Positions 26,201-39,676 of a DNA stretch of 64,000 bases are shown here, piece by piece (the stretch's first letter is position 1; each line of letters opens with the position of its first letter). The DNA is taken from NCBI GenBank assembly GCA_022901335.1, contig GCA_022901335.1_3641.1; one strand, 5' to 3'. The position numbers and the translations under genes were made by a program. The DNA comes from a phage. The notes beneath the pieces are model-generated. The model saw nothing but the letters and a program-made list of their open reading frames with translations. It did not search any database and was not told where the DNA came from.

Positions 26201-28855
26201 GATGGAACATCCATATCTATGCAAGTTCCGGTAACAAACGGATACAAGCGTGTTGTGATGATCATTAAGTGCGATCTGATAGGTAAGCAAGTTCTTGCAG
26301 AGAACGGAACTTCCACCCACCTATTTGAGACTGCTCTGCACTATCAGTTTTCTGATTCACCTTTTGCAGGGGATAAGAGAATATCTGACACAGACGCTGT
26401 GCGATGCAAGAAATTTATGCTAGGTGGTGGGTGGTGGTGGTATGAATTTGACTTAACAGACAAATTCACCGACACGTCTAAAGTAGTGACGGGGCTTCGT
26501 CTAGACCTTGGCGAAAACATGCACAAAAGTGTTTGTGATGGCACCTACGGTGACCCAACAATCTACTTAAAGTATGTCTCTTTTGAGCACCCAGAGGATG
26601 TTGTTTATGGTCCAAAACTGAGACTGTTTGGCAATTGGATTGCTAAAGACAGGGTAGGTATGGGCAAGAAGGTAAGAGGCTTCTTAATGGATGCCGGTAC
26701 AGAGGACATGCTAGTCAATGCAGTGTGGCCTGAATTACCTGGGACTCAGTGGAACAACTCAGCCAAATCTATAAACTGGTTCAATATCCACAGGGCTATG
26801 TGGACAACCAACTGTTACCTGTGGAAAGAGCTGAATGACGGCGCTTTCGGGTTCACAGGCGGCAGAAGAATGGCAATCATTTGCTGGACAACGTTGCAAA
26901 GATGTTATGACCATGACTACGAGATTGGAGGTAGGGCATGGAAAAATATTAGGGATAGAATCATAACCAACTTTGCAGATCCTAACGGTGGTGGAGCGTA
27001 TGGCTTCGACTGCAGCAGGCTCATCCATTTGAACGGATCCTCTGCCTACAAGAAAGAAGGTTACTCTGGGTCTATGATAGAATGGGGCCTGGTGAAAGAT
27101 GCTCGCGTGCTGATGGGTCAACAACTTGCTGCTGCAATAGGTCCTAATGCAGTGCAATCTGTTAAACCTGCGTGGTTTGATATCCCATTGTGGTCATCCG
27201 GTACACCAGGAACTGCTGCAATCAACCCTACCACGGGGGATCTGGAAATCTCTTGGGAGGACTTGAAGCAGGTTGGAGGCTGGGATAAAACAGGGTATCA
27301 GGTCCAGTGGTGGAGGGCTGATGGATCTTTAGCCGCTGATGAGTTTGTTAAGGACAATTTCTACACCATGTCCTCTGCAAAAGCACAGCAATTATTTGGT
27401 CAGGCCACTCCGTCAACGATCACCATGTCTATGTGCTGTAAAGACAACAGGACTGGAGCTTTGGGGCCAAGGGTTGCTAAGGTTTTCTCAGGTATTAAAT
27501 GGAATCTCCCTGTTCAAAGTGTTTCATGGAAGCAAATAGGTGATAACAAGCTGCTGGTTACCCCTGCCTGTCAGTTCAACGCAACTCTTAACGTTGATCC
27601 TGCTGTTGCGGCAAACTCAGCTAAAGCTTCTGACTTCTCTGTGTCTAACACTGCTATGGCAGATGTGAGGAAGATTGACACGCTGAACGCCAGAATTACC
27701 TGTAAAAACACTTATGGCACATTCCAGATCATCAACAACTTCACAGATGCTGATTCTAAGGTAGTGAGGACAGCAAGCCAGACTTTGAGTTTAGGAACTC
27801 TGGCCTATGCGGCCCTGATCACTGAACAGTCGGCAACACTCCAAGGAGGTGGTGTAGGCAAGTCCATTACAACACCTGTGTGGAAGCCAAATGAGTGGGT
27901 TGTGTTCGATTTGACTGTGGACTTCTCCAGTGATAATAACTGGACATGGGTAAGGAATTGTTTGTCACAGTTGATGGGCGGTCCAAGCTCCATTAGCGAT
28001 AGTCACGACTCTACTGACCCGAGCGTGTTCCAGGTGGGTAAAACTCACCCAGAGACTGGAGAAACGTTGCCTGACAGGAAGTATGCTTTGGTTTGCATCT
28101 CTTACGGGAAGGCAGATGTCACCTTCTCAGGGACACACACTTATAACGGAACCTACAACTTCTCAAGGAAGTATAGTCTCAAAGCAGGGAACATTGTAGA
28201 CGAGGTTGGTGTGCTGTATAATCCAGGTAACGGCATAGGGATTGTGGGTGGTAAACTGCAGATGCAGGAACCTTCTATTACCCCTTCCAACGTATCCGGT
28301 ATTAGAAAGACTTGGGAAAGTAATAATACCAACATTGCAACAGTGGATGCTGCCACAGGGCTGGTAACATTTAAAGCTACTGGGAATGTCACCATAAAGT
28401 TTGTAGTTACTGATGATGCAGGGCGCAAAACGTCTTCAACATCTTTTACTGTCAAACAGATGGCACCACAGTGGAGAATGTGGATAGGTACAGCAACAAA
28501 CGGGGCATACCCTAATCCGGCAGGTACTTCTGGTATGAAGACTTTCTCTACAAGCAAACCGATGGAGTACGGCAGCGGTCCTAAGGTAGGGCAGATGGTG
28601 TACTTTGGTGCGTATATTCCTGAAATTATAGGGCTTCCGAGAAGTCAGCTTCAGTTGCTGTTTGGGGCTGGTGTTGACGATCTTGCCACTTTCGGGTATA
28701 GCGACAACATCGAGGCTGCAAGGAGTTCAGGATGGGTAGGGTTCAGAATGGAGTCTGGAAAGGAAGGCAGGGTTCTAGGGACAGCCTCTATAGGTGTTAT
28801 GTTCCCTGGTGACCAGCAGTATCGTCTAGAAGCCTACGCAACCTTTTCTCGTTAG
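23219..28855 (+). CDS. giant virion-associated protein with C-terminal Ig-like (Big_2-type) domain
   Basis: 1878-aa ORF with RBS GGAGAA; Big_2-like segment (...IATVDAATGLVTFKATGNVTIKFVVTDDAGRK...). Confidence 0.55.
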   Translation: MLPIPLLKLGRHFLDKRGGIKELAVLSYPIDNSDGTSNTVSYVNSLAILFDDGQLNITGYNRFGECRTGDLDTINYPNEAAWNVDHVWRADRAFVIRTFDNKFFYIGCTAGLIGSEAAGGNDVCVREWTPLPEQIVTGLHLDTHPERLVEVMGGVNNTVWVIAAPEADGMLHLYGSGNNTYGSLHVDKSQHATPVKIGETSESPETGPWKNPRINCEVHDNSVIFGGPNGFWIAGYDFLRNNSKNTLVYPAEHVTLDQFKGIPVGETWKGFMCGPNGAIIATERMHKPDDQQLVNVFYGQDVWGDDTWRSLNITYTHEVIMARGYGTSGIFFNNGTKQYRGFSRNLCNDIGAQSANNNPRANFIHYRALATAKFVEQTEPVSWTESVYFQGIHREGFLGTLCVVNGKLWWSGIPRGSFSGSNNLFGGRLNSQGFTEIPENWYKNVPVDSWGVEDIFDVNGVSSVSNIYIGDTVKMKLKPQPEGATFIIDKIELVNAAGTVVTDANYQFSTNWNHGGANEVVVTQYNRNVNRRGLYSVKITYHDKHGTGRTHTTRTLNWNTIVPAYPSNGKWHTVGRNKQFHVNDTVYFGLNAAQPAVEGDTSYIVRLHRMDAGSVTYDVTQEIYDQRRTTYDNVVKTQALWEFNPNGRGGKMLQVNEQNGTSLTVHEHPDPWPDPGKPNSGARTLKIVSHDAGYFGIRWEATVRYADGTTNNIGITLGGTSEDNSLKIAYTPRGISIDNIDVVRNGYGDVNVKVTLGEHLGGERIIMYAFDHDPRTNGTYANQAWSYLINAPEPNTKEFYYGMKRDVCKKTGTHDWIAICVKDERTAWDEPVNRWFIGIPTRSDKYVAEYIVCMGGTNLNMCWNEDVNKYSDYDYMRDYSCNLWFNQTTGYPPRQARVNPAIFTDTQVFLTKQANEVQTFKNKYDPNKWFYNCYGAFFWGPGELPGGGSCFEAATYASDRFMGQVKKYKIIPGPETLGNAVDPYIIMSDLRSNMDGTSISMQVPVTNGYKRVVMIIKCDLIGKQVLAENGTSTHLFETALHYQFSDSPFAGDKRISDTDAVRCKKFMLGGGWWWYEFDLTDKFTDTSKVVTGLRLDLGENMHKSVCDGTYGDPTIYLKYVSFEHPEDVVYGPKLRLFGNWIAKDRVGMGKKVRGFLMDAGTEDMLVNAVWPELPGTQWNNSAKSINWFNIHRAMWTTNCYLWKELNDGAFGFTGGRRMAIICWTTLQRCYDHDYEIGGRAWKNIRDRIITNFADPNGGGAYGFDCSRLIHLNGSSAYKKEGYSGSMIEWGLVKDARVLMGQQLAAAIGPNAVQSVKPAWFDIPLWSSGTPGTAAINPTTGDLEISWEDLKQVGGWDKTGYQVQWWRADGSLAADEFVKDNFYTMSSAKAQQLFGQATPSTITMSMCCKDNRTGALGPRVAKVFSGIKWNLPVQSVSWKQIGDNKLLVTPACQFNATLNVDPAVAANSAKASDFSVSNTAMADVRKIDTLNARITCKNTYGTFQIINNFTDADSKVVRTASQTLSLGTLAYAALITEQSATLQGGGVGKSITTPVWKPNEWVVFDLTVDFSSDNNWTWVRNCLSQLMGGPSSISDSHDSTDPSVFQVGKTHPETGETLPDRKYALVCISYGKADVTFSGTHTYNGTYNFSRKYSLKAGNIVDEVGVLYNPGNGIGIVGGKLQMQEPSITPSNVSGIRKTWESNNTNIATVDAATGLVTFKATGNVTIKFVVTDDAGRKTSSTSFTVKQMAPQWRMWIGTATNGAYPNPAGTSGMKTFSTSKPMEYGSGPKVGQMVYFGAYIPEIIGLPRSQLQLLFGAGVDDLATFGYSDNIEAARSSGWVGFRMESGKEGRVLGTASIGVMFPGDQQYRLEAYATFSR

Positions 28856-28863
28856 CAAGGGGT

Positions 28864-28898
28864 AAATAAAAAGGGGCCAAACGGCCCCTTTCTTTTTA
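28864..28898. terminator. bidirectional rho-independent terminator between convergent blocks
   Basis: 8-bp stem AAGGGGCC/GGCCCCTT, loop AAAC, A-run on one side and T-run on the other. Confidence 0.65.
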
Positions 28899-28901
28899 TA
28901 A

Positions 28902-29102
28902 TTAGTAATACTCCCAACATGCTCCATCTTCAGACGGCTTGACGCGCTTACCTTTATGGTCAACATAGGTATAGCCACAACCTTCACAAATAACAGGTGC
29001 TGCATAGCCTTCCTTCCACTGATCCTCAGTGATCAGACCTTCCAAATCTTTGCAGTCAAAGCCAAACAACTCTTCAGAGCAATCTTTACAAAAATCAGCC
29101 AT
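28902..29102 (-). CDS. small zinc-ribbon protein
   Basis: 66 aa with CxxC...CxxC Cys pairs. Confidence 0.45.
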   Translation of the reverse strand: MADFCKDCSEELFGFDCKDLEGLITEDQWKEGYAAPVICEGCGYTYVDHKGKRVKPSEDGACWEYY

Positions 29103-29105
29103 TTC

Positions 29106-29588
29106 TCAGTCCTCGCATTTAACAAATTTTTCTACAGATCCACCAAGCACAGCTTGTTGCTTGATGGCACTCTCTTCATCATAGTGGATAGACTTATGTT
29201 CCGTACCTCCAAACTTGCCTGTGTGGAAGGTGTGCACCCAAATCTCTTTAGGAAGGGATTTATTCTCTTCTTCCACCAGCTCCCATATACCCCACAGGTG
29301 GTCTGTAATATCTTTGATGAAATATCCCTCGCCAAGATTTGTATTCACACTATAGGCTGATTCGTGGTCTCCACAAATATAACGGAAGGCGGTGTACTCT
29401 TTCCCAGGTGTGAAGTGGGTATCCATCAGTATAGCTGTTAAAGAATTCGGGTCTCGAAAGCCCAAGAACTTTAGTTTAACAATTTCGACGTTCACACTTG
29501 CAAGATTATCCATGACAATCTCCTCTGCTTGGTTGATGAGATAATCATATATAAATCTGGTGTTGATGTCAAGCTTAATTTTAAGCAA
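29106..29588 (-). CDS. hypothetical protein
   Basis: 160-aa ORF packed in the minus-strand operon. Confidence 0.5.
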   Translation of the reverse strand: MLKIKLDINTRFIYDYLINQAEEIVMDNLASVNVEIVKLKFLGFRDPNSLTAILMDTHFTPGKEYTAFRYICGDHESAYSVNTNLGEGYFIKDITDHLWGIWELVEEENKSLPKEIWVHTFHTGKFGGTEHKSIHYDEESAIKQQAVLGGSVEKFVKCED

Positions 29589-29676
29589 TTTGAGAGGGTA
29601 TTTTATTCAGGAGGGTAATCTCACAGGGTAGGGCAATTTATGAAGGCACAGGCCTCGTTTGAGGCCTTAAAATAGG

Positions 29677-30057
29677 TTATGACACTTTGACGTAGCGCTC
29701 TGACAAAGCTGGGAAGCCAAAAGCAGTACCTATACTACCGTATGCTACCCACCATTGAAGTTCATCGTGACACCATTTTCCGATCAGAAAGGTGCTGGGG
29801 TAGCGAGTCAGTATTTTGGCATAAGCTTTAGGGTCTGCATCCTCTGGGATAATGATACTTGGAACATCTTTGTTATGACCACAGCAGCAGTTTAGAGTTT
29901 TCAATCCTGCCGCCCATAGACTCATGATAGGCTTAGCCATACACTTATCAAGGCACACACGTTTTTTGCCGTCACGGAGCTTTTTAGGCACATCAACGAT
30001 AACATTTTGATGCTTGGCACCTTTCACTTTCCAATTATAGGATTTACACTTGCACAT
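29677..30057 (-). CDS. Cys-rich putative metal-binding protein
   Basis: 126 aa with CKC...CLDKC...CCCGH cluster. Confidence 0.5.
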   Translation of the reverse strand: MCKCKSYNWKVKGAKHQNVIVDVPKKLRDGKKRVCLDKCMAKPIMSLWAAGLKTLNCCCGHNKDVPSIIIPEDADPKAYAKILTRYPSTFLIGKWCHDELQWWVAYGSIGTAFGFPALSERYVKVS

Positions 30058-30087
30058 TTAATCAATCTCCATCTAGAAAGCAATACT

Positions 30088-30258
30088 TTACTTAAAATCT
30101 TTGTCACCTATTACGATTGCACGAATCCACTCATTGCGATGTTCAATGGCGGTAAGGTGTAACATAATGCAGTGATTGTCATTACCAAACACGGTGCGGT
30201 AAGCTTTAGCAGCACCATGATATAACTTCCACATCAGGTAATGATATCTTCGCCTCAT
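30088..30258 (-). CDS. small hypothetical protein (56 aa)
   Basis: below the 60-aa track cutoff; ATG overlaps upstream stop as ATGA; fills an otherwise 200-bp gap. Confidence 0.3.
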   Translation of the reverse strand: MRRRYHYLMWKLYHGAAKAYRTVFGNDNHCIMLHLTAIEHRNEWIRAIVIGDKDFK

Positions 30259-30734
30259 GGCTCTTTCTCCGGTTCAGGATCTGGGTAATCTTCAATAATA
30301 AAAGGCCATCCGTTCCGCTTAGCCTCAGACTTGTACTCAATCTCCTTCATTGCAAACTCTAACTGATTTTTAGCCGGAATACATGCCGGAGAATCATCAA
30401 TCCAGATATCTGGGTAGATATCAAACTGCGCCAGGTAGGCTGCCTTCTGAACACCGCCAGTATAAAACACACCAACATCGAGCTCCTTGCGCCAATACTC
30501 AATGTCTACGTTGTCTTGAGTGATGAATCGGAAAGTCACAAGGTAGACTGTCCACCCTTCCTTTTTCAAGTCCCTAATCAGGCGGGAGAAGATGAAAGGA
30601 CTCGCATTAAATGTTCCATCAAAGTCAATGGCAATGATGTGTGTGCCGTGGCGAGTCTCGTATGGATTGCTTGTGGTAAGATTACTGTAGTTAAAAGGAA
30701 CTTCTTCCCCGCAGTAGCTGTAGTCCATATTCAC
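30255..30734 (-). CDS. HAD-superfamily phosphatase-like protein (possible nucleotidase)
   Basis: motif I IIAIDFDGT (DxDGT) and downstream WIDDSP acidic motif. Confidence 0.5.
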   Translation of the reverse strand: MNMDYSYCGEEVPFNYSNLTTSNPYETRHGTHIIAIDFDGTFNASPFIFSRLIRDLKKEGWTVYLVTFRFITQDNVDIEYWRKELDVGVFYTGGVQKAAYLAQFDIYPDIWIDDSPACIPAKNQLEFAMKEIEYKSEAKRNGWPFIIEDYPDPEPEKEP

Positions 30735-31006
30735 ACCTTCTCGTTGATAAATTTACGGGCTGTTTGGTGAGTTGTTTCTGCTGTCTTCAGAATGATATTA
30801 ATTTTATTGTCAAGATCATTCATCTCTGCAGTTAATTCAGGAATCTCTCCAGTATGCATAGTGAAATCATACATAGACATGCCCAGAATCTCATTGATGC
30901 GACGGTTGCATTCTGCAGCACGCTGGTTCATTTTCCAAGCTAATACCAAAGCCTCCTGCGTAGCCTCTAGTGCAAAGTCTAATACGTCGGCCTCTTCTTT
31001 CGTCAT
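30731..31006 (-). CDS. hypothetical protein
   Basis: 91-aa ORF, overlap-coupled to downstream gene. Confidence 0.45.
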   Translation of the reverse strand: MTKEEADVLDFALEATQEALVLAWKMNQRAAECNRRINEILGMSMYDFTMHTGEIPELTAEMNDLDNKINIILKTAETTHQTARKFINEKV

Positions 31007-31063
31007 CTCAGTCTCTCCTGTTGTATTGTTGGTAGGTGTATGAATACCTTATAACTCACCTTT

Positions 31064-31630
31064 TTATTCAAACTGCAATAGTAAGTCCACCACCGCGCTA
31101 GGTCTGTCAACAAATTCCCCAGGTCCACATGCCCACAGAGGGTATCCGTCTACATACCGCCAAATCCAACCTGCAGTGTGTAGCTCAAGCAGGGCAGTAC
31201 CGTCCTTACTGTCAACCACCCTTTCCCACAGTGTTGGGCAGCGAAGCTTGAGAATCGGATCACCCCCCTTATACCCATCCATGTAGATACCCATTGCAAA
31301 GTTCAGCATCATCTTTTTGTGCACTGATCTCTTATTGAGAGTGCTCATCACTTCCTCTTTGTGAATGTTTGTAAGCTTCTCCCTGGCTACCCGCAGATCG
31401 TTGCAATCATTGTTCAGAAGATCTTCCAGGCACTTGATCCGAAGGTCGTGAATGTCTTTGTCGTGTACCGTTGGCACAGGGTCGTAGCGGTATAGCACTG
31501 TTGATACAAGGTTGCTCGGGTGTGGGTCTGACAGCAACCCATAACCCCAATACTCTTCTGTATCTGAAAGGACAAGACACCCAATGTCTCTGTCAAGCTT
31601 TCCTGTGTTGTAAGCCACATTGACCGCCAT
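31064..31630 (-). CDS. hypothetical protein
   Basis: 188-aa ORF in operon. Confidence 0.5.
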   Translation of the reverse strand: MAVNVAYNTGKLDRDIGCLVLSDTEEYWGYGLLSDPHPSNLVSTVLYRYDPVPTVHDKDIHDLRIKCLEDLLNNDCNDLRVAREKLTNIHKEEVMSTLNKRSVHKKMMLNFAMGIYMDGYKGGDPILKLRCPTLWERVVDSKDGTALLELHTAGWIWRYVDGYPLWACGPGEFVDRPSAVVDLLLQFE

Positions 31631-31632
31631 GA

Positions 31633-31878
31633 CTATAGCTCCACTAGCAAAGTGCTTTCAAAGTGCCGTTCATGCAGACCGTTGTAAGGGACCACTTCCA
31701 CAACGCCATCACGGACATACGGGGCCATCATGGTGGCATAATCCCCAAACGGGTTGGTATTGTCACTAACCACAACCACCTTCTGCCCTTCCTTGGCAGA
31801 GTGCCAAATAGACCTGCACTTCATCAGGTGTTCGAGAGCTCCAGGTAAAATTTTGTTACGTTCTTTACGGGTCTTCAT
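31633..31878 (-). CDS. hypothetical protein
   Basis: 81-aa ORF. Confidence 0.45.
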   Translation of the reverse strand: MKTRKERNKILPGALEHLMKCRSIWHSAKEGQKVVVVSDNTNPFGDYATMMAPYVRDGVVEVVPYNGLHERHFESTLLVEL

Positions 31879-32324
31879 AACAGGTATAGCTCCTTATGAA
31901 AGTGGTCTTTTAATTTCTCACTGAGAAACCTTTTGATACCTTCCTCTAAAGTGTTTTCGATATAGTCCAGCTTAACTGCTTCGATGGACATATCATAGAT
32001 CGCCAGCTCTAAGCTGTCAAGTCCCATCATAGCATGAACCATAAGATTTTCATCTTCAGATACATTCAGGGGACTTCCTATAACATCTGTAGGGAGGATA
32101 GTTTCCCAATTATTCTGGGGGGTAGTTCTCCCGCCATCCACTTTACGGCGCAGTTCGAAGGTGTTCTTAGTGTAGAACACTTCATAAGAAACGATACGAC
32201 TATCGCTCTCATAATAAACGAAGTTCAGGTAGGAGCCTAGCCGCAGTCGGCAAACTTCTACCCCAAACCATTGTTTCTTATAAGAATTCAGGCTAATGCT
32301 ATCGCATTCACGTTTGCTCAACAC
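31875..32324 (-). CDS. hypothetical protein
   Basis: 149-aa ORF, overlap-coupled. Confidence 0.5.
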   Translation of the reverse strand: MLSKRECDSISLNSYKKQWFGVEVCRLRLGSYLNFVYYESDSRIVSYEVFYTKNTFELRRKVDGGRTTPQNNWETILPTDVIGSPLNVSEDENLMVHAMMGLDSLELAIYDMSIEAVKLDYIENTLEEGIKRFLSEKLKDHFHKELYLL

Positions 32325-32339
32325 GGCTCTCTCCTTTTG

Positions 32340-32573
32340 TTAATCTTCGTAAATCAGGATTTCTGCTTTAGGTTTTCGTGCTTTCAGGTCCAGCTCTATC
32401 CAGTGCACCATAGCTGTTTCAAGAAAAACAGCTTGGATGCATCCGTCCTCAGCGTGCCCCACCAACATAACAAGATCTTCACCTTCGTCATCTGCATCAC
32501 GAACATACAGAATCTCTCCAGATTCAAAGTCTTTCACAACCTGATTGCTGGATAATTTACGAATTTTTGCCAT
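32340..32573 (-). CDS. small protein, divergent member of tandem paralog family
   Basis: 77 aa; weak similarity to the three 87-aa paralogs upstream. Confidence 0.4.
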   Translation of the reverse strand: MAKIRKLSSNQVVKDFESGEILYVRDADDEGEDLVMLVGHAEDGCIQAVFLETAMVHWIELDLKARKPKAEILIYED

Positions 32574-32574
32574 A

Positions 32575-32838
32575 TCAGAAACCCTCTAAAAAGCTCTTGT
32601 AGAAAATAATTTCAGTGTCCACACCTGTCACGATCTTATCGTTTCGGATCTCATCGGTAAGATAGGTGTCAAAACGCAGAACCTGTGTGGTGTTGTCACA
32701 CATCCACTCAGCTGTGACCATTGCGAAAATCTTAGCATCTTCATTATCTGGTGTGAATGTTACCACCTCACCGCACTTAAACTTTTCGATAGGCTGAGTG
32801 TTAGCTTTCGGTTCTGCGATAGTGATTTTTGTGGTCAT
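32575..32838 (-). CDS. small protein, tandem paralog family member 3
   Basis: 87 aa; shares CGxVV...VTGVDTEIIF core with neighbours. Confidence 0.5.
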   Translation of the reverse strand: MTTKITIAEPKANTQPIEKFKCGEVVTFTPDNEDAKIFAMVTAEWMCDNTTQVLRFDTYLTDEIRNDKIVTGVDTEIIFYKSFLEGF

Positions 32839-33101
32839 TATTCTCCTCCTTCTTTCGAATAGCTTGTCTCTCCAAGGATGGTAATTTTGGTATCAAGCTC
32901 TGTAACTTTCATGTTTGGCGGCAGATCGTACAACTCATTATTTTCTAAATCGAATCCCCACACACAATGTTCTCCTGTTTTGACAATCATAACTATGTTT
33001 TGAATGCCGTCTCCGTCGCAACTTACCACGGTCCCACACGGAAAACTGTCTGCACGCTTTTTGTTCTTCACCTTAGAATTGAATACAATGCTAGTAGCCA
33101 T
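32838..33101 (-). CDS. small protein, tandem paralog family member 2
   Basis: 87 aa; MATS..F.SK.K.KK..S..CGTVV...VWGFDL...VTELDTKITILGE; ATGA overlap with neighbours. Confidence 0.5.
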   Translation of the reverse strand: MATSIVFNSKVKNKKRADSFPCGTVVSCDGDGIQNIVMIVKTGEHCVWGFDLENNELYDLPPNMKVTELDTKITILGETSYSKEGGE

Positions 33102-33364
33102 TATTGTTCCTCCACCATAACTTCGCCAAGAATTTCTATGCAGGCATCCATTTCTGTAACAACCAAACTGTGAGGTAGTTCTACAAACACCTTTCTGAAC
33201 AGGTCAAATACCCCAACATATATGTTTGCAGGATGTGATTTTACAACAAGTGCTGTATTCACATCCCCAAGTTCATCAACAAACATCACCACAGTGCCTA
33301 GAGCTACTGAGGACAGATACTTCTTAGTTTTACGGTTTGATGCAAATTTTAACTCTGTTGCCAT
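33101..33364 (-). CDS. small protein, tandem paralog family member 1
   Basis: 87 aa; MATELKFASNRKTKK...GTVV...VGVFDL...VTEMDACIEILGE. Confidence 0.5.
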   Translation of the reverse strand: MATELKFASNRKTKKYLSSVALGTVVMFVDELGDVNTALVVKSHPANIYVGVFDLFRKVFVELPHSLVVTEMDACIEILGEVMVEEQ

Positions 33365-33379
33365 AAATAGCCTCCTCTC

Positions 33380-34861
33380 TTACTTAGCGTACTCGATTAA
33401 TTCCACAGTTTTCCCAAAGCTCGGGATATAATTTTTATTATACCCTTCAGTGAGAACCCATAAAGTATCGTACTTTTTCCACTTGTTGTCAACAGCCTTT
33501 TGTTCAAAGTTATGCTCAAAGTATAGGTCGGTCAGGACGATGACATCTTTTGCATTCGGTATGTTGGCATCCAGATACTCGAACACGCAAGCAGCTGTTG
33601 TGCCCCATGTTGAGTGGACCTCATAGTTGATCATTTCGTCTATGTTGCCGCGAGTATATACTTTAACCTCTCCGACTTCAGTTGACCAACAGAACATTGT
33701 AACCTTAAACTCTTTATACAGATTGCACAATCCGGTGATTTCATTGAACATTTTCTTTAAAGTTCTTTGAGAGATCGAGCCAGAAACGTCTAAAGCTACC
33801 ACAATATCTATGGTGTTTTCCGGATTACGACCAGGAACAATAACGTGCTGGTTCTTGTTTATAGCCCCAACTTTTCGCATTGTGCTGGTCAAAGACCCAG
33901 ATCGGCGACCAGGTTTTCTGTAGGTCAGTTCGGCCTTTCTTTTAGACAACATGCGTTGCTTGATGATGTCTATATAATTGATTACAGGCTTACCTCTATT
34001 CTTGACAAACTCACGAACCGCCTCAGGGCAACGGCCTCCGGAAGCTTGCATTGCTGCCTCCAGCATGTCACCAGAGTCCTGCATGGCCTGATCTTTATCA
34101 GATTGGCTTATTACAGGTTGTGGCTGATCATACCCCATAGCTTTTCCAAGATCATCACTGGTGCCACCGTTACCACTCATGTGATCATCGGTTTGTCGCT
34201 TATCACCTTGAGAGTTCTCACCTTTACCGCTCTTACTTTTACCGTTATTCTGATCTCTTTGCTTATCAAGAACTGCATAGACGTTCTCAGCAATCCATCC
34301 ATGAAACTTCATGTCGCAGTAGCAGTTAGCTAAGAAGCCAAAAGGCTTGCCTTTCACGAACGTAGTGCTTTTCCCCTTCGGGAAGAAAACACAAGGAGGC
34401 TTGCTAAAGTCAACCACAAGACCTGTGTTGATAACGTGATCACAAGCAATATTAAACAGTTCCGGCTCAAAGCTCTTACCACGGACCAGGTGATCACAGA
34501 TAATATGCCCCACCTCATGTGACAGAAGAAAGGCCACCTCTTTCACAGATTTGGGGGAATAGAAAACCTCAGCCATCTCAAACTGCTTGTCAGTTAGAGA
34601 AGCCTTAAGAATAGCCTTGCGTTCATCAGCCAATCCCATAATGAACTCAGGACTGTAATAGATGCGTTTATGGTCGGTTGCCATGGTGGAGCACCATGTG
34701 TGGTTTTCTACGAACTGCAACCCTGACAGTAGTGTGCCATAGAACGGCAGCTTTTCAAGGAGATACATACGTGCAGCCTGCAACATTCTCAGGGCATCAT
34801 CTTTCTGCGAGGCAATGATTTCTGAACTTCTGCTATCCATTAAAACTCCAGAAGGGGCCAT
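33380..34861 (-). CDS. VWA-domain protein with N-terminal HExxH metallopeptidase-like domain
   Basis: HEVGH motif in N-terminal half; MIDAS-type DVSGSIS in C-terminal half. Confidence 0.6.
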   Translation of the reverse strand: MAPSGVLMDSRSSEIIASQKDDALRMLQAARMYLLEKLPFYGTLLSGLQFVENHTWCSTMATDHKRIYYSPEFIMGLADERKAILKASLTDKQFEMAEVFYSPKSVKEVAFLLSHEVGHIICDHLVRGKSFEPELFNIACDHVINTGLVVDFSKPPCVFFPKGKSTTFVKGKPFGFLANCYCDMKFHGWIAENVYAVLDKQRDQNNGKSKSGKGENSQGDKRQTDDHMSGNGGTSDDLGKAMGYDQPQPVISQSDKDQAMQDSGDMLEAAMQASGGRCPEAVREFVKNRGKPVINYIDIIKQRMLSKRKAELTYRKPGRRSGSLTSTMRKVGAINKNQHVIVPGRNPENTIDIVVALDVSGSISQRTLKKMFNEITGLCNLYKEFKVTMFCWSTEVGEVKVYTRGNIDEMINYEVHSTWGTTAACVFEYLDANIPNAKDVIVLTDLYFEHNFEQKAVDNKWKKYDTLWVLTEGYNKNYIPSFGKTVELIEYAK

Positions 34862-34873
34862 TGGCCCCTGTTA

Positions 34874-35914
34874 TTATTTAACGTGTTTGAAAATACCTGC
34901 CAACTCGGTCATTGTCATGCGGGTGGTCTTCATAAGATCTGTCATAGCTTTCTCCATAATTGGAGATACTACCATAAAGTTTCCTTTAGTGAAACCTTTA
35001 TTCCAGTCGGTCACCAACAGAGGTTTAAGTCCAGCTCCAAGACGTTCACCAGTTAAAGCACAGCATTTGCGAATATACGAACTCTTAAATTGGCTGAACG
35101 ACAGATCAACTTTCATACCTACATCGTAGAACGTTTGACAATAGAAAGTGTAAGCTTTGGCAATCTCAACATCATCAGGTAGTGCAGGAACCTCTTCTGT
35201 AAGCTCCTCTTCGACCTCCTGAGTCTCTTTTTCCTCTTCATGCACCTGTTGCGTCATTTCTTCAATCTCTTCTGTGATAGGCTCGTTTACAATGTCGGAA
35301 ATGTGCTTCTTGGGTGCACGATAAGTAACTTTAGACATCGGTAGCATATCTTCCTCCTCTTCTTCGTCAAAGAGTGCTAGTTTATCCTCTTCCGTTCCAT
35401 ATTGCAAGATGAAATCTTCAAAAGTATAATCACCTTTCAATTTCTCCATACGCTCTTCGCTCAGGTGGAGCATCATCTGCTGGACAATTTTTCGATCAGT
35501 TTCGTCTTTAATCAAGACTGCAGTCTTTTTATCTACCAGACAGTCCTTTAGAGAGTTGCATCTCAATCCCACCACACAACAGTTATCAACCGCATAAGGA
35601 CCTTCATCATCTATCCGCTCCAGAGATGGGTAGAAAGGATTTCCCAGCCCGTTTTCATCTGTGTGCATGTCAAAAGGTATAAGGGTATAGTCGCATACTC
35701 CATCTCCTAAAAGTTTTTTACCAAATAGGAGGTATTCTTCCCATGACAGGTCGAACTCTATATCTCGTTTCCGTGCGTTATTCTGTTTGCGTCTATATTT
35801 TTTGAGCAAGCGCTCTAACTCTTCCGGTGTATAATATTTTTCAAGATTCATGAGTCGTCTCTCGTGCTCTGTAAGTGAAGAAATCGTATCAATTGTCTCA
35901 ACAGATGTCAACAT
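34874..35914 (-). CDS. protein with two HNH-like (S-x-E/D-R-I-D type) domains separated by an acidic linker
   Basis: ATG at 35914 (track start 35917 is TTG); DIEFDLSWEEY...SLERIDDEGPYAVDNCCVV and a second similar unit; poly-E linker. Confidence 0.45.
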   Translation of the reverse strand: MLTSVETIDTISSLTEHERRLMNLEKYYTPEELERLLKKYRRKQNNARKRDIEFDLSWEEYLLFGKKLLGDGVCDYTLIPFDMHTDENGLGNPFYPSLERIDDEGPYAVDNCCVVGLRCNSLKDCLVDKKTAVLIKDETDRKIVQQMMLHLSEERMEKLKGDYTFEDFILQYGTEEDKLALFDEEEEEDMLPMSKVTYRAPKKHISDIVNEPITEEIEEMTQQVHEEEKETQEVEEELTEEVPALPDDVEIAKAYTFYCQTFYDVGMKVDLSFSQFKSSYIRKCCALTGERLGAGLKPLLVTDWNKGFTKGNFMVVSPIMEKAMTDLMKTTRMTMTELAGIFKHVK

Positions 35915-35924
35915 CAAAAACGTG

Positions 35925-35953
35925 TTGACTTTACTCTAACTCCACAATATAGT
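35925..35953 (+). promoter_or_regulatory. sigma70-like promoter TTGACT-N17-TATAGT in divergent intergenic region
   Basis: near-consensus hexamers 40 bp upstream of the 35994 ATG, 10 bp from the minus-strand gene start. Confidence 0.55.
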
Positions 35954-35993
35954 GCACCCATTCGAAAGAAAACTAACATAGGAGCACTTACTT

Positions 35994-36899
35994 ATGGCAA
36001 ATCTTAACAGTTTTAGTACGCGGTGGAAACAGGACATAACAACCAATCTTTCAGCTGGAGACATCCTTTCTGCAATTTACGAGGCTTTAGATGATAAAGC
36101 TACTTCAAAAGCGGTTTGTACCAACCCACTAATTCCTGTAGTGATGAAGGTTATTGAGCGTAGATTGGTATCTGGGTCTGATAAGTGGACATATTTAGAT
36201 AATGAAGGACACACCTATTCCAATGGGTACGTCGATATAAAAGTAGAATACGCGGTATCATACCGCCGGAGCGGTTCTGTAACTTTCAACTTCTCTGGAG
36301 GTTTTCGATCTCTGGCTACCTCACCTTTTGTTTCCTCAGAGGAGAAGTATGAGCTGCCATTTCTTTGGATGATGGCTAACGCGACAGGAAAAACCCCCGT
36401 TAGCATCCGAGTAAAATACAACTACAACGGATCTAGTAAGATCTATGCCGAAAGTGTCTCAGCAAGTTTTTATTTTGTGATGGGGGATGGAATCCTCAAA
36501 CATATAAAGATGTGCGATATGCATGATGTTATAAATGAAGTGACTGATAAGAATGTTCTAGTGAAAGACCTCAACAATTTTTATACACCCGGAGACTATT
36601 ACGTCAGCCGTCCACTGTGCATCTTTAATGCCGCACACCCTCTAGGTGAGTATTTGATCGCCAATAGCGATATTGCCAATAACCGCTTCGAGGTAGCAAG
36701 AGTTCAGAATGAGGTATTGACATCTTGCAAGAGCGGTGATAAGTTTACCGAAGAAGAGATGGGTGTTTTAGAAATGATGGGATATAAGTGTAGCCTTTGG
36801 GTAGATGAGGTGTTTAATGATTGCATCTATGGACAGGATATTTACCCATTAAAGAAGTATACTGATTCCAGTTTAATTTACGCGGAGATTTTACTATGA
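35994..36899 (+). CDS. hypothetical early protein
   Basis: 301-aa ORF with RBS AGGAG. Confidence 0.55.
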   Translation: MANLNSFSTRWKQDITTNLSAGDILSAIYEALDDKATSKAVCTNPLIPVVMKVIERRLVSGSDKWTYLDNEGHTYSNGYVDIKVEYAVSYRRSGSVTFNFSGGFRSLATSPFVSSEEKYELPFLWMMANATGKTPVSIRVKYNYNGSSKIYAESVSASFYFVMGDGILKHIKMCDMHDVINEVTDKNVLVKDLNNFYTPGDYYVSRPLCIFNAAHPLGEYLIANSDIANNRFEVARVQNEVLTSCKSGDKFTEEEMGVLEMMGYKCSLWVDEVFNDCIYGQDIYPLKKYTDSSLIYAEILL

Positions 36900-38222: not shown

Positions 38223-38492
38223 ATGTTATACCAGCAATATGAACTTCGTGCAGAAAAAGAGTTAAATTTTGACAAAGATATTCACAGATATTATTATGGG
38301 AAAGTTAGAGGGCAAGCAAGAAAGTGTACTCCAACACTCTTTTATGCCAGCAGACGACTAGCGCCAGAAGAGGCAACAGCAGAAAGGGTTGCGTACAACT
38401 GGAGAGTCACGTATGATATTGACAGATTCGATGTGATATCTGTTTTGGAAAACTTTGAAAACACTTACACACAAGTAGAGGACTTTTACTAA
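38223..38492 (+). CDS. hypothetical protein, coupled to AAA+ gene
   Basis: RBS AAGGAG; stop overlaps next start (TAATG). Confidence 0.45.
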   Translation: MLYQQYELRAEKELNFDKDIHRYYYGKVRGQARKCTPTLFYASRRLAPEEATAERVAYNWRVTYDIDRFDVISVLENFENTYTQVEDFY

Positions 38493-39676
38493 TGTCAAGA
38501 AACGTATTCGAAAGTGGTCAAATCACTGTCCGTGAGTTGCCAGCTATTATTCAGTTTGCCCAACGTCATAGCCGATCTGTCCTAATTTTGGGACCAATGG
38601 GTGTGGGTAAAAGCCAGGTGATGAAGCAGATCGCTGATAATATGTTCGGTGAGCGAGATGACAACCTTGTTGACGTGCGACTGTCAGATAAAGATCCTGC
38701 CGACTTATCTGGGCTACCTATCCCTGTAGAAGCGGATGGAACTACACGTACAGTGTTTGCAATTCCAGAATTTTGGCCTGCGGATCCTGACTGGAGCGGA
38801 ATTATCTTTCTGGATGAGCTCACTCATGCAGATAACTACCTGCAAAAGGTTGCAATGCAAATTATGCTTGACCACAAGTGCGGCACCTATGCATTCCCTA
38901 AGGGTTCTGTTTTTGTGGCTGCGGGTAACCGTTCTACAGATGGTGCGGTTCTTTCGGCGCTCGAAGCCCCTCTGGCTAACCGTTTTATCATTGTAGAGGT
39001 TACAAGCAATGCAGAGGTGTTTATTGAGGACTACGCATTCCTTAATGGGGTGCACTCCTCTGTAATTGGATATCTGAAAAGAGTTCCATCAGCTATCGAT
39101 AATTATGAGGCCATGGCTGAGATTAATTGTCCATCTTTTGCCACACCGCGATCTTGGGTTGCTGCATCTGATATCTTGCACGATTTTGACAGCGGTATTA
39201 TTTCTGACGCTATGGCCCGTGTTCTTCTGCAAGGTGCTATTGGTCACACTGCAGCGGTAGAGATCTGGACATACCACACCAAGAAACGCAATTTACCGGA
39301 AATCGGTCGGATTATGGCAGGTGGCTGCAAAGAATACGTAGGCCCTAAGCAGCCAGACATTTTGTGGATTCTTGGATCTGAAGGTTGTATCGCTATTCGT
39401 AATATGATGGAAAATGCAAGTATCTCAGACGAAGATCTTGTCAGCTGCGTGGCAAACTTCCTCGATTTCCTTTGGGAAAACTTCAAGGACGAGAACCGAG
39501 ATTTTGTATTCTCAGTCTTTATGGCGATGATGAAACCTAATGCCTTAGGAAATGCCTTGCTTATCGGTAAAGGTCGTGACAAGATTGTTGCTCAGCTGAT
39601 CAAAGCATACCCAAACCTGATGAAGATTGTAAAAGAGTTTGGTGAAGAGTTTAGCGCCATTTTGGCTAAAGCTTAA
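38492..39676 (+). CDS. MoxR-like AAA+ ATPase (AAA_5-type)
   Basis: Walker A GPMGVGKS, Walker B IIFLDEL, sensor motif LANRF. Confidence 0.65.
   Translation: MSRNVFESGQITVRELPAIIQFAQRHSRSVLILGPMGVGKSQVMKQIADNMFGERDDNLVDVRLSDKDPADLSGLPIPVEADGTTRTVFAIPEFWPADPDWSGIIFLDELTHADNYLQKVAMQIMLDHKCGTYAFPKGSVFVAAGNRSTDGAVLSALEAPLANRFIIVEVTSNAEVFIEDYAFLNGVHSSVIGYLKRVPSAIDNYEAMAEINCPSFATPRSWVAASDILHDFDSGIISDAMARVLLQGAIGHTAAVEIWTYHTKKRNLPEIGRIMAGGCKEYVGPKQPDILWILGSEGCIAIRNMMENASISDEDLVSCVANFLDFLWENFKDENRDFVFSVFMAMMKPNALGNALLIGKGRDKIVAQLIKAYPNLMKIVKEFGEEFSAILAKA

Follow-up and report, generated by a model that had tools for sequence, protein, structure and literature searches.

A tandem array of four small paralogous genes encoding predicted SH3-like β-barrel proteins in a Vequintavirus genome region

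The window analysed here, a 64,000-nucleotide stretch of phage DNA (contig GCA_022901335.1_3641.1 of GenBank assembly GCA_022901335.1), carries on its minus strand a tandem array of four small genes (positions 32340-33364), which we call A, B, C and D in their order of translation (Table 1). To judge from profile comparisons with shuffled controls, the four are one family of common origin, and their products are predicted to be small β-barrels of the SH3-like class. The array combines a variable slot, occupied here by A and B, with a highly conserved pair, C and D. Over positions 31000-35000 the surrounding sequence shares 97-98% identity with more than 100 complete Vequintavirus genomes (rV5-, FV3- and Murica-like coliphages).

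The list of open reading frames (ORFs) contains, exactly as the preliminary description had it, three consecutive minus-strand ORFs of 87 residues and one of 77, and A, B, C and D each give full-length profile matches to PHROG families of unknown function. The ATGA overlaps reported for the stop and start codons are present at the A/B and B/C junctions but not at C/D, where a 1-nt spacer intervenes (TGAtATG); the motifs described as common to the three 87-residue proteins are complete in A and B only, whereas C keeps CGEVV and a degenerate VTGVD..II. Each of the four ORFs is preceded by a Shine-Dalgarno sequence at a distance of 6-9 nt, which for gene A is AGGAGG (33376-33371), 6 nt from the ATG. 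In the slot proteins the acidic tail at the C terminus (..EE(Q), ..EGGE) is specified by GGAGGA-type codons that double as the Shine-Dalgarno sequence of the next gene (33365-33380, 33102-33120 and 32839-32856), and part of this conserved tail may reflect a constraint of translational coupling rather than protein function. The Shine-Dalgarno sequences, the coupling and low ratios of nonsynonymous to synonymous substitution rates (dN/dS; see below) argue that all four genes are real and expressed.

The similarity between A and B is evident from direct alignment: they are 38% identical, with a Smith-Waterman score of 105 against 23.7 ± 4.2 for shuffled sequences (z of about 19-20; none of 2000 shuffles scored as high). 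The pairwise scores of C and D were marginal (z of 1-5 overall, 1.9-5.4 for C), and profiles were therefore built. The A/B alignment, searched against 5.8 billion proteins, yielded 30 clusters at 90% identity, of which 25 were aligned together with A of the window; the C and D search returned close variants only. The A/B profile matches C with an hhalign probability of 87% and an E value of 4e-6 over 73-75 columns, and the score of 34.5 was reached by none of 200 column-shuffled controls (10.4 ± 1.9). The merged A/B and C profile in turn matches D (probability 80%, E value 1.4e-5, 66 columns; score 31.2 against 9.8 ± 2.2 in column-shuffled controls, 0 of 200 reaching it), whereas C and D compared directly are not significantly similar (4 of 200 shuffles as high). 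When a hidden Markov model (HMM) of A/B and C was run over the 412 ORFs of at least 40 residues in all six frames of the window, D was the sole other match, with an E value of 2.3e-5 against 0.53 for the next best. The profile scores and this single match argue for a true four-member paralogous family with no dispersed copies in the window. The tandem array of diversified paralogs that had been proposed from the sequence is thus borne out more strongly than by its motifs, and the 77-residue ORF, noted as more divergent, proves to be the most divergent member and yet a true one.

At the DNA level no repeats are recognizable among the copies except a 12-nt junction motif with a 263-nt period, and the duplications are therefore ancient; a recent duplication was rejected, this motif being the only repeated sequence. 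Three further candidates for membership were rejected at hhalign probabilities below 1% and hmmsearch E values above 0.3, namely the window genes g81 and g91 and an 85-86-residue `AWGF' gene of Seunavirus and Mydovirus. The last of these lies between the Srd-like and DUF2201 genes (L003 2678-2935; L004 2038-2298) and is similar in size to A-C, its motif resembling that of the family only superficially; in the Mydovirus KNP2 an extra 627-nt gene stands between it and DUF2201.

B was modelled with AlphaFold2 from the 26-sequence family alignment and D from a family-wide alignment. The B model (pLDDT 82.4, pTM 0.67) comprises a long N-terminal strand, a helix of one turn and another five strands, and the D model (pLDDT 81.8, all five models 79-82) has the same core of a short helix and five strands but lacks the N-terminal strand. 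Both models display the five-stranded, strongly bent antiparallel barrel that defines the SH3-like small β-barrel class (Tudor/KOW/L2-C), and B and D are confidently predicted to be five- to six-stranded small β-barrels of SH3/Tudor/KOW-like type. The same fold class includes the small barrels of Tudor, KOW, the ribosomal protein L2 C-terminal domain and the UvrD/PcrA C-terminal domain. Searches of Pfam, NCBIfam, PADLOC and PDB sequence profiles with the array proteins gave no match and no catalytic or known domain; in particular, no Tudor match was found in Pfam at E values up to 0.1 or among PDB sequence profiles, and no Pfam match to KOW/NusG-Spt5 (PF00467). Among predicted structures in BFVD the neighbours of D overlap those of B, and many small proteins (55-90 residues) from N4-like phages and other lytic phages share the predicted fold with TM scores of 0.5-0.7 to both models. 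These include N4 gp21 and proteins of phages 172-1, NJ01, ECBP2, SU7, LAMP and Cronus, several of them from phage groups with DUF2201 homologs. They differ from the array proteins in sequence (10-23% identity), so that homology is not demonstrable, and they too are uncharacterized.

The closest published analogue is the T4 GoF/MotB.1/Frd.2 group, mutually divergent and dispensable early proteins of unknown function in which AlphaFold revealed an SH3/LSm-like N-terminal barrel (Kim et al., 2025; PMC12152347). Both groups consist of several very divergent small proteins in one lytic coliphage, with a five-stranded SH3/LSm-like barrel recognized mainly by structure prediction, a likeness of fold class only; both are lineage-restricted, have no known function and lie in a region, early in T4 and putatively early here, that encodes Srd, and dispensability has been shown for the T4 genes only. 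The T4 proteins differ in being longer (119-141 residues), in having an extra C-terminal domain and in being encoded by genes dispersed in the genome, whereas the array encodes proteins of 77-87 residues, single-domain in the models, in a translationally coupled tandem arrangement with a polymorphic slot. The family profile gave an hmmsearch E value of 0.57 and an hhalign probability of 0.3% for GoF, and for MotB.1 a probability of 0.1% with no entry in the hmmsearch output. The array family is thus at most like the T4 GoF group and not a member of it, and the models are consistent with a lineage-specific family of small β-barrel early proteins of lytic phages, unrelated in sequence to known ones.

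This likeness bears on the possibility that the array proteins bind RNA in the manner of LSm/Sm proteins and so modulate the stability or translation of mRNA early in infection, perhaps in concert with the Srd-like protein encoded nearby. RNase E is stimulated by T4 Srd, and in the third lineage of the family (see below) a C-type gene lies immediately upstream of a Srd-like gene. Hfq/LSm, KOW and the L2 C-terminal domain, which share the small β-barrel class, all contact RNA, and the N-terminal strand of the array proteins is rich in Lys and Arg. GoF has been proposed to act on RNA, and its D25Y variant stabilizes an mRNA (PMC12152347), but no effect on RNA was seen for wild-type GoF. All four array proteins are also acidic (pI 4.5-5.0, net charge -4 to -8), and their sequences do not resemble those of Hfq, LSm, KOW or GoF. 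We judge RNA binding of this kind to be unlikely.

Homologs of the family are few. A HMMER search of 1.84 billion representatives found three genuine A/B-type clusters (at 50% identity), the remaining matches being long repetitive and apparently spurious proteins; tblastn with C matched only the 118 Vequintavirus records, with identities of at least 90% throughout; and a search of IMG/VR returned two loci. With the DUF2201 gene as an anchor for comparing the array site across genera, a gene of 123-133 residues was found to follow DUF2201 immediately in Seunavirus, Mydovirus, W70 and Certrevirus CR3. It is a homolog of g149, the downstream neighbour of the array, in Seunavirus (E value 2e-11) and Mydovirus (E value 3e-5), and in W70 and CR3 it has a similar size but no BLASTP similarity to g149. 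None of these four other Vequintavirinae genera has a family member within 3 kb of DUF2201, and the array is therefore a lineage-specific insertion between two otherwise adjacent conserved genes, particular to Vequintavirus and its closest kin. On these searches the family is an ORFan that does not occur beyond Vequintavirus and two sister lineages.

The same comparison speaks to the idea that the array proteins serve the phage MoxR AAA+/DUF2201 (VWA-metallopeptidase) pair as adaptors, substrates or regulators. In Vequintavirus the array lies directly downstream of DUF2201 in the same operon, and in N4-like phages DUF2201 homologs occur as well as small proteins with this predicted fold. The four genera without a family member near DUF2201 nevertheless keep both MoxR and DUF2201, and in the third lineage the slot-type gene adjoins an NT5C-like gene far from DUF2201, while three genes separate C from DUF2201 in L015. 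A role tied to this pair is quite improbable.

The slot occupied by A and B is polymorphic. Across the 118 records it holds two copies, A and B, in 44 and one gene of 84-86 residues, here termed rV5-type, in the other 74; A is 98% identical in 43 phage records, and the rV5-type gene shares about 40% identity with each of A and B. Comparison by blastn with three relatives (L002, L007 and L008) shows that homology ends at 33350, 15 nt into A, and resumes at 32850/32849, 12 nt before the ATG of C. The flanks are 87-97% identical to those of the relatives and the interior is without similarity, and the difference is a clean replacement of a cassette at gene boundaries. The haplotype does not follow the species assignment: Pr121LW, classed as V. 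murica, has the single gene. A possible origin of the rV5-type gene as a chimera of the A N-terminus and the B C-terminus by unequal crossing-over was rejected, as the lean of 10/21 against 6/19 positions, and then of 5/24 against 9/24, was not significant.

The slot family divides into three roughly equidistant clades with 33-42% mutual identity: the A-type (A and P0031), the B-type (B and P0002) and the R-type (the rV5-type gene and forms of 83 and 86 residues). A separate A'+B' pair is found in the diverged lineage L009-L011, with 55% and 64% identity to A and B of the window, which argues that the A/B duplication predates the split of that lineage. In contigs related to the third lineage an R-type gene stands alone between an NT5C-like gene and a 142-residue gene. 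The dN/dS ratio of gene A against its orthologs is 0.14-0.24; for the slot genes it is 0.00-0.14 within each class and 0.28-0.41 between R subtypes, and never above 1. The slot variants thus appear to be old, functional, discrete alleles under purifying selection rather than hypermutating sequences. The 142-residue gene, which lies directly 3' of the slot-type gene in these diverged contigs, is Cys-rich (..NCCCGHNK..; L012 4267-4695, L017 3172-3600), and a 126-residue ORF of the window (29677-30057, minus strand) is homologous to it, with 68% nucleotide identity.

C and D behave differently from the slot genes. C is at least 90% identical in all 118 records, with a dN/dS of 0.01-0.02 at a dS of 0.5-1.7, and the corresponding ratio for D is 0.05-0.10, both at or below those of the flanking genes. 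In L011 the C and D proteins are 96.6% and 94.8% identical to those of the window, whereas the flanking proteins are just 36-82% identical; in 60-column blocks of the pairwise alignment, nucleotide identity is 83-97% within the C-D patch and 33-73% outside. This patch of high identity within diverged flanks indicates that C and D have been exchanged horizontally as a module and are under strong constraint. In the third lineage (L015) nucleotide similarity to the window is limited to the C-type gene, which is 82% identical to C of the window and directly precedes the Srd-like gene. With the B/C junction a recurrent breakpoint, family members seem to behave as individually mobile small-gene cassettes of early regions. 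The array had been characterized beforehand as accessory and diversified. Its tandem paralogs are indeed diversified, but C and D belong to the best conserved genes in this region, and the slot alleles fall into a small number of old, discrete classes, each under purifying selection, rather than forming a continuum of variants.

Table 1. Features of the array region (window coordinates).
Feature	Position	Strand	Remarks
Gene A, 87 residues, variable slot, A-type	33101-33364	-	phrog_10698, E value 2e-42; pI 5.0, basic N-terminal strand
Gene B, 87 residues, variable slot, B-type	32838-33101	-	phrog_10698, E value 5e-41; start overlaps stop of A (ATGA)
Gene C, 87 residues, highly conserved remote paralog	32575-32838	-	phrog_12861, E value 9e-62; start overlaps stop of B (ATGA)
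Gene D, 77 residues, conserved, most divergent paralog	32340-32573	-	phrog_12046, E value 5e-55; without long N-terminal strand
Swappable cassette, interior of A+B, 499 nt	32851-33349	-	~232 nt in one-copy relatives, with single rV5-type gene
C-D module, patch common with L011	32224-32830	-	From start of C to ~100 nt into g149
Downstream neighbour g149 (149-residue product)	31875-32324	-	phrog_6790; `tail protein' is a mislabel
Upstream neighbour, DUF2201 metallopeptidase-like and VWA-like protein, 493 residues	33380-34861	-	PF13203, 3e-28; PF09967, 4e-11
Srd-like (`anti-sigma') gene, first of the unit	34874-35917	-	PHROG Srd and σ70-decoy matches
σ70-like promoter of the array unit	35911-35883	-	Promoter scan
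Divergent consensus-like promoter	35925-35953	+	Promoter scan

Strong constraint of this kind has to be set against the possibility that the array is a by-product of neutral mosaicism, made up of dispensable `filler' ORFs, partly untranslated or lacking a specific target. Sister genera do not have this ORFan family, which is hence not essential for the virion or for replication; dN/dS nowhere exceeds 1; and T4 can do without its analogous genes in the laboratory. Filler would hardly be expected to evolve as C does, at a lower dN/dS than its flanking genes; the ORFs and their Shine-Dalgarno sequences have been kept in three lineages in which the neighbours diverged to 36-82% identity, the C-D pair has been kept after horizontal transfer and the predicted folds are confident. 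We therefore consider a wholly neutral origin very improbable.

The array sits in a minus-strand unit that begins with the Srd-like gene, continues with the DUF2201 gene and about 15 mostly small genes and ends at a terminator near 28870-28891. The rV5 genome paper proposed genes 11-26 as one unit, an operon with bidirectional promoters, and the consensus-like divergent promoters of the window are found at the same place. An Rfam search of 28800-36300 gave no matches. Such a location, in the Srd/MoxR operon and outside the morphogenesis unit, is difficult to reconcile with minor virion or assembly components, an assignment to which the automated labelling of small nearby genes as `tail protein' would point. 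SH3-like barrels do occur in some phage structural proteins. The `tail protein' label stems from a single PHROG (phrog_6790) and has no experimental basis, the mass-spectrometric list of rV5 virion proteins in the main text comprises gp30-64 and gp133 only, and the family is absent from related genera of the same virion architecture. A structural role is extremely improbable.

Several further features of the unit were noted. The promoter upstream of the array is an extended -10 promoter of σ70-like sequence (TTGACA-17-TACGAT) that overlaps the first codons of the Srd-like ORF as mechanically listed, with a TTG start at 35917 and 347 residues. The product annotated in JES2013 has 325 residues, equivalent to a start at Met23 (~35851), which fits better with the position of the promoter. 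At the other end, a GC-rich hairpin (AAAGGGGCC-AAAC-GGCCCCTTT) at 28870-28891 separates the end of the minus-strand unit from a convergent plus-strand ORF of 1878 residues; a T-run follows it on the plus strand, the minus strand was not flagged by the scan, and its position agrees with the bidirectional terminator placed between genes 26 and 27 in the rV5 paper. The MoxR-type AAA+ ATPase gene (38492-39676, plus strand) and DUF2201, its usual VWA partner, are on divergent strands here, whereas in CR3 the ATPase gene directly precedes DUF2201 on a single strand, and in W70 an unannotated gene of matching size occupies that place. DUF2201 homologs were found in 498 phage records, including N4-like and jumbo phages. 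Public annotations name both the DUF2201/VWA protein and the Srd-like protein `HNH endonuclease', and g149 `tail protein' or `holin' (window; L003, L004 and L018); the Pfam and PHROG matches suggest that these are propagated mislabels. Similarly, 16 GenBank records (MG0656xx) named `Campylobacter phage' with C. jejuni as host are 90-100% identical to this E. coli Vequintavirus region, which suggests mislabelled or contaminant genomes.

As to function, we see about an even chance that the array proteins are early-expressed, stoichiometric, non-enzymatic binders of host or phage macromolecules that serve host takeover or counter-defence; our confidence in any specific target is much lower. This proposal draws on their small size and lack of catalytic motifs, the predicted binding fold, the Srd/MoxR operon with its σ70-type promoters, the lineage restriction, the horizontal mobility and the strong purifying selection. 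The four genes would be co-transcribed in the leftward σ70-driven unit that starts at the Srd-like gene (rV5 gp11-gp26) and translationally coupled through overlapping stop and start codons and Shine-Dalgarno sequences within the acidic tail of the preceding gene. C and D would engage an invariant host or phage target, and the slot proteins one that differs among hosts or is under conflict, so that alternative alleles are maintained; the mode of action would be protein-protein or protein-nucleic acid binding rather than catalysis. The host-takeover or anti-defence role suggested in the preliminary description is in keeping with the σ70-driven Srd-like unit, the small acidic proteins without enzymatic features, the restriction to a single lineage and the cassette polymorphism. 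No characterized homolog of any array protein was found. No homology to anti-defence proteins was detected in Pfam, NCBIfam, PHROG or PDB searches or with PADLOC, which holds defence models only; no anti-defence profile library was searched. The array genes are not dealt with in the rV5 genome paper, the first BASEL paper or the daunorubicin paper, and the text of the rV5 supplement does not mention gp13-15.

A number of points weigh against the binder proposal. As dN/dS exceeds 1 nowhere, an arms race is not demonstrated and the slot polymorphism could be neutral mosaicism. The fold is generic, since SH3-like barrels bind proteins, RNA, DNA and peptides, and does not identify a target; that of D is not independent evidence, as its alignment contained A, B and C. 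Early timing follows only from the promoter consensus and the operon proposed by the rV5 authors. Vequintavirinae have moreover been reported to be unusually sensitive to restriction-modification systems, so that array proteins acting in counter-defence would not confer broad anti-restriction.

A more specific form of the binder proposal, speculative and on the unlikely side, treats the slot as a specificity cassette and the invariant C-D pair as docking on conserved host machinery, for instance RNA polymerase, Rho or the degradosome. Ancient classes of a Tudor/SH3-like binder (A+B, the rV5-type and the 83-86-residue type) would persist in the population and be shuffled by recombination at microhomologies at the gene boundaries, and each class would neutralize, or avoid triggering, a different variant of a host factor, for example a defence sensor. 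If true, this would make the array a new phage family of counter-defence or takeover effectors with a built-in polymorphic module. If the array proteins prove dispensable, the array would represent an ordinary lineage-specific expansion of small genes in a phage early region.

Existing databases hold the array proteins as three unrelated families (phrog_10698, phrog_12861 and phrog_12046, with VOG5597 for A and B) and record neither their common origin nor their fold; four `hypothetical proteins' thus become one paralogous family with a predicted fold. Phages of the rV5-like group rank among the coliphages isolated most often and serve in cocktails for biocontrol and therapy, and their early genes are almost unstudied. 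The conservation and horizontal mobility of C and D mark them as the members likeliest to have a conserved, identifiable binding partner. Genomes with 95-97% identical flanks that differ at the slot constitute a natural experiment, with several representatives of each type in the BASEL collection, among them CarlMeissner with A+B and AlexBoehm with one copy, and with these haplotypes allele-specific phenotypes on defence-carrying or natural hosts are directly testable. Overall, the array is a good but not extraordinary candidate for a host-interaction locus of these phages.

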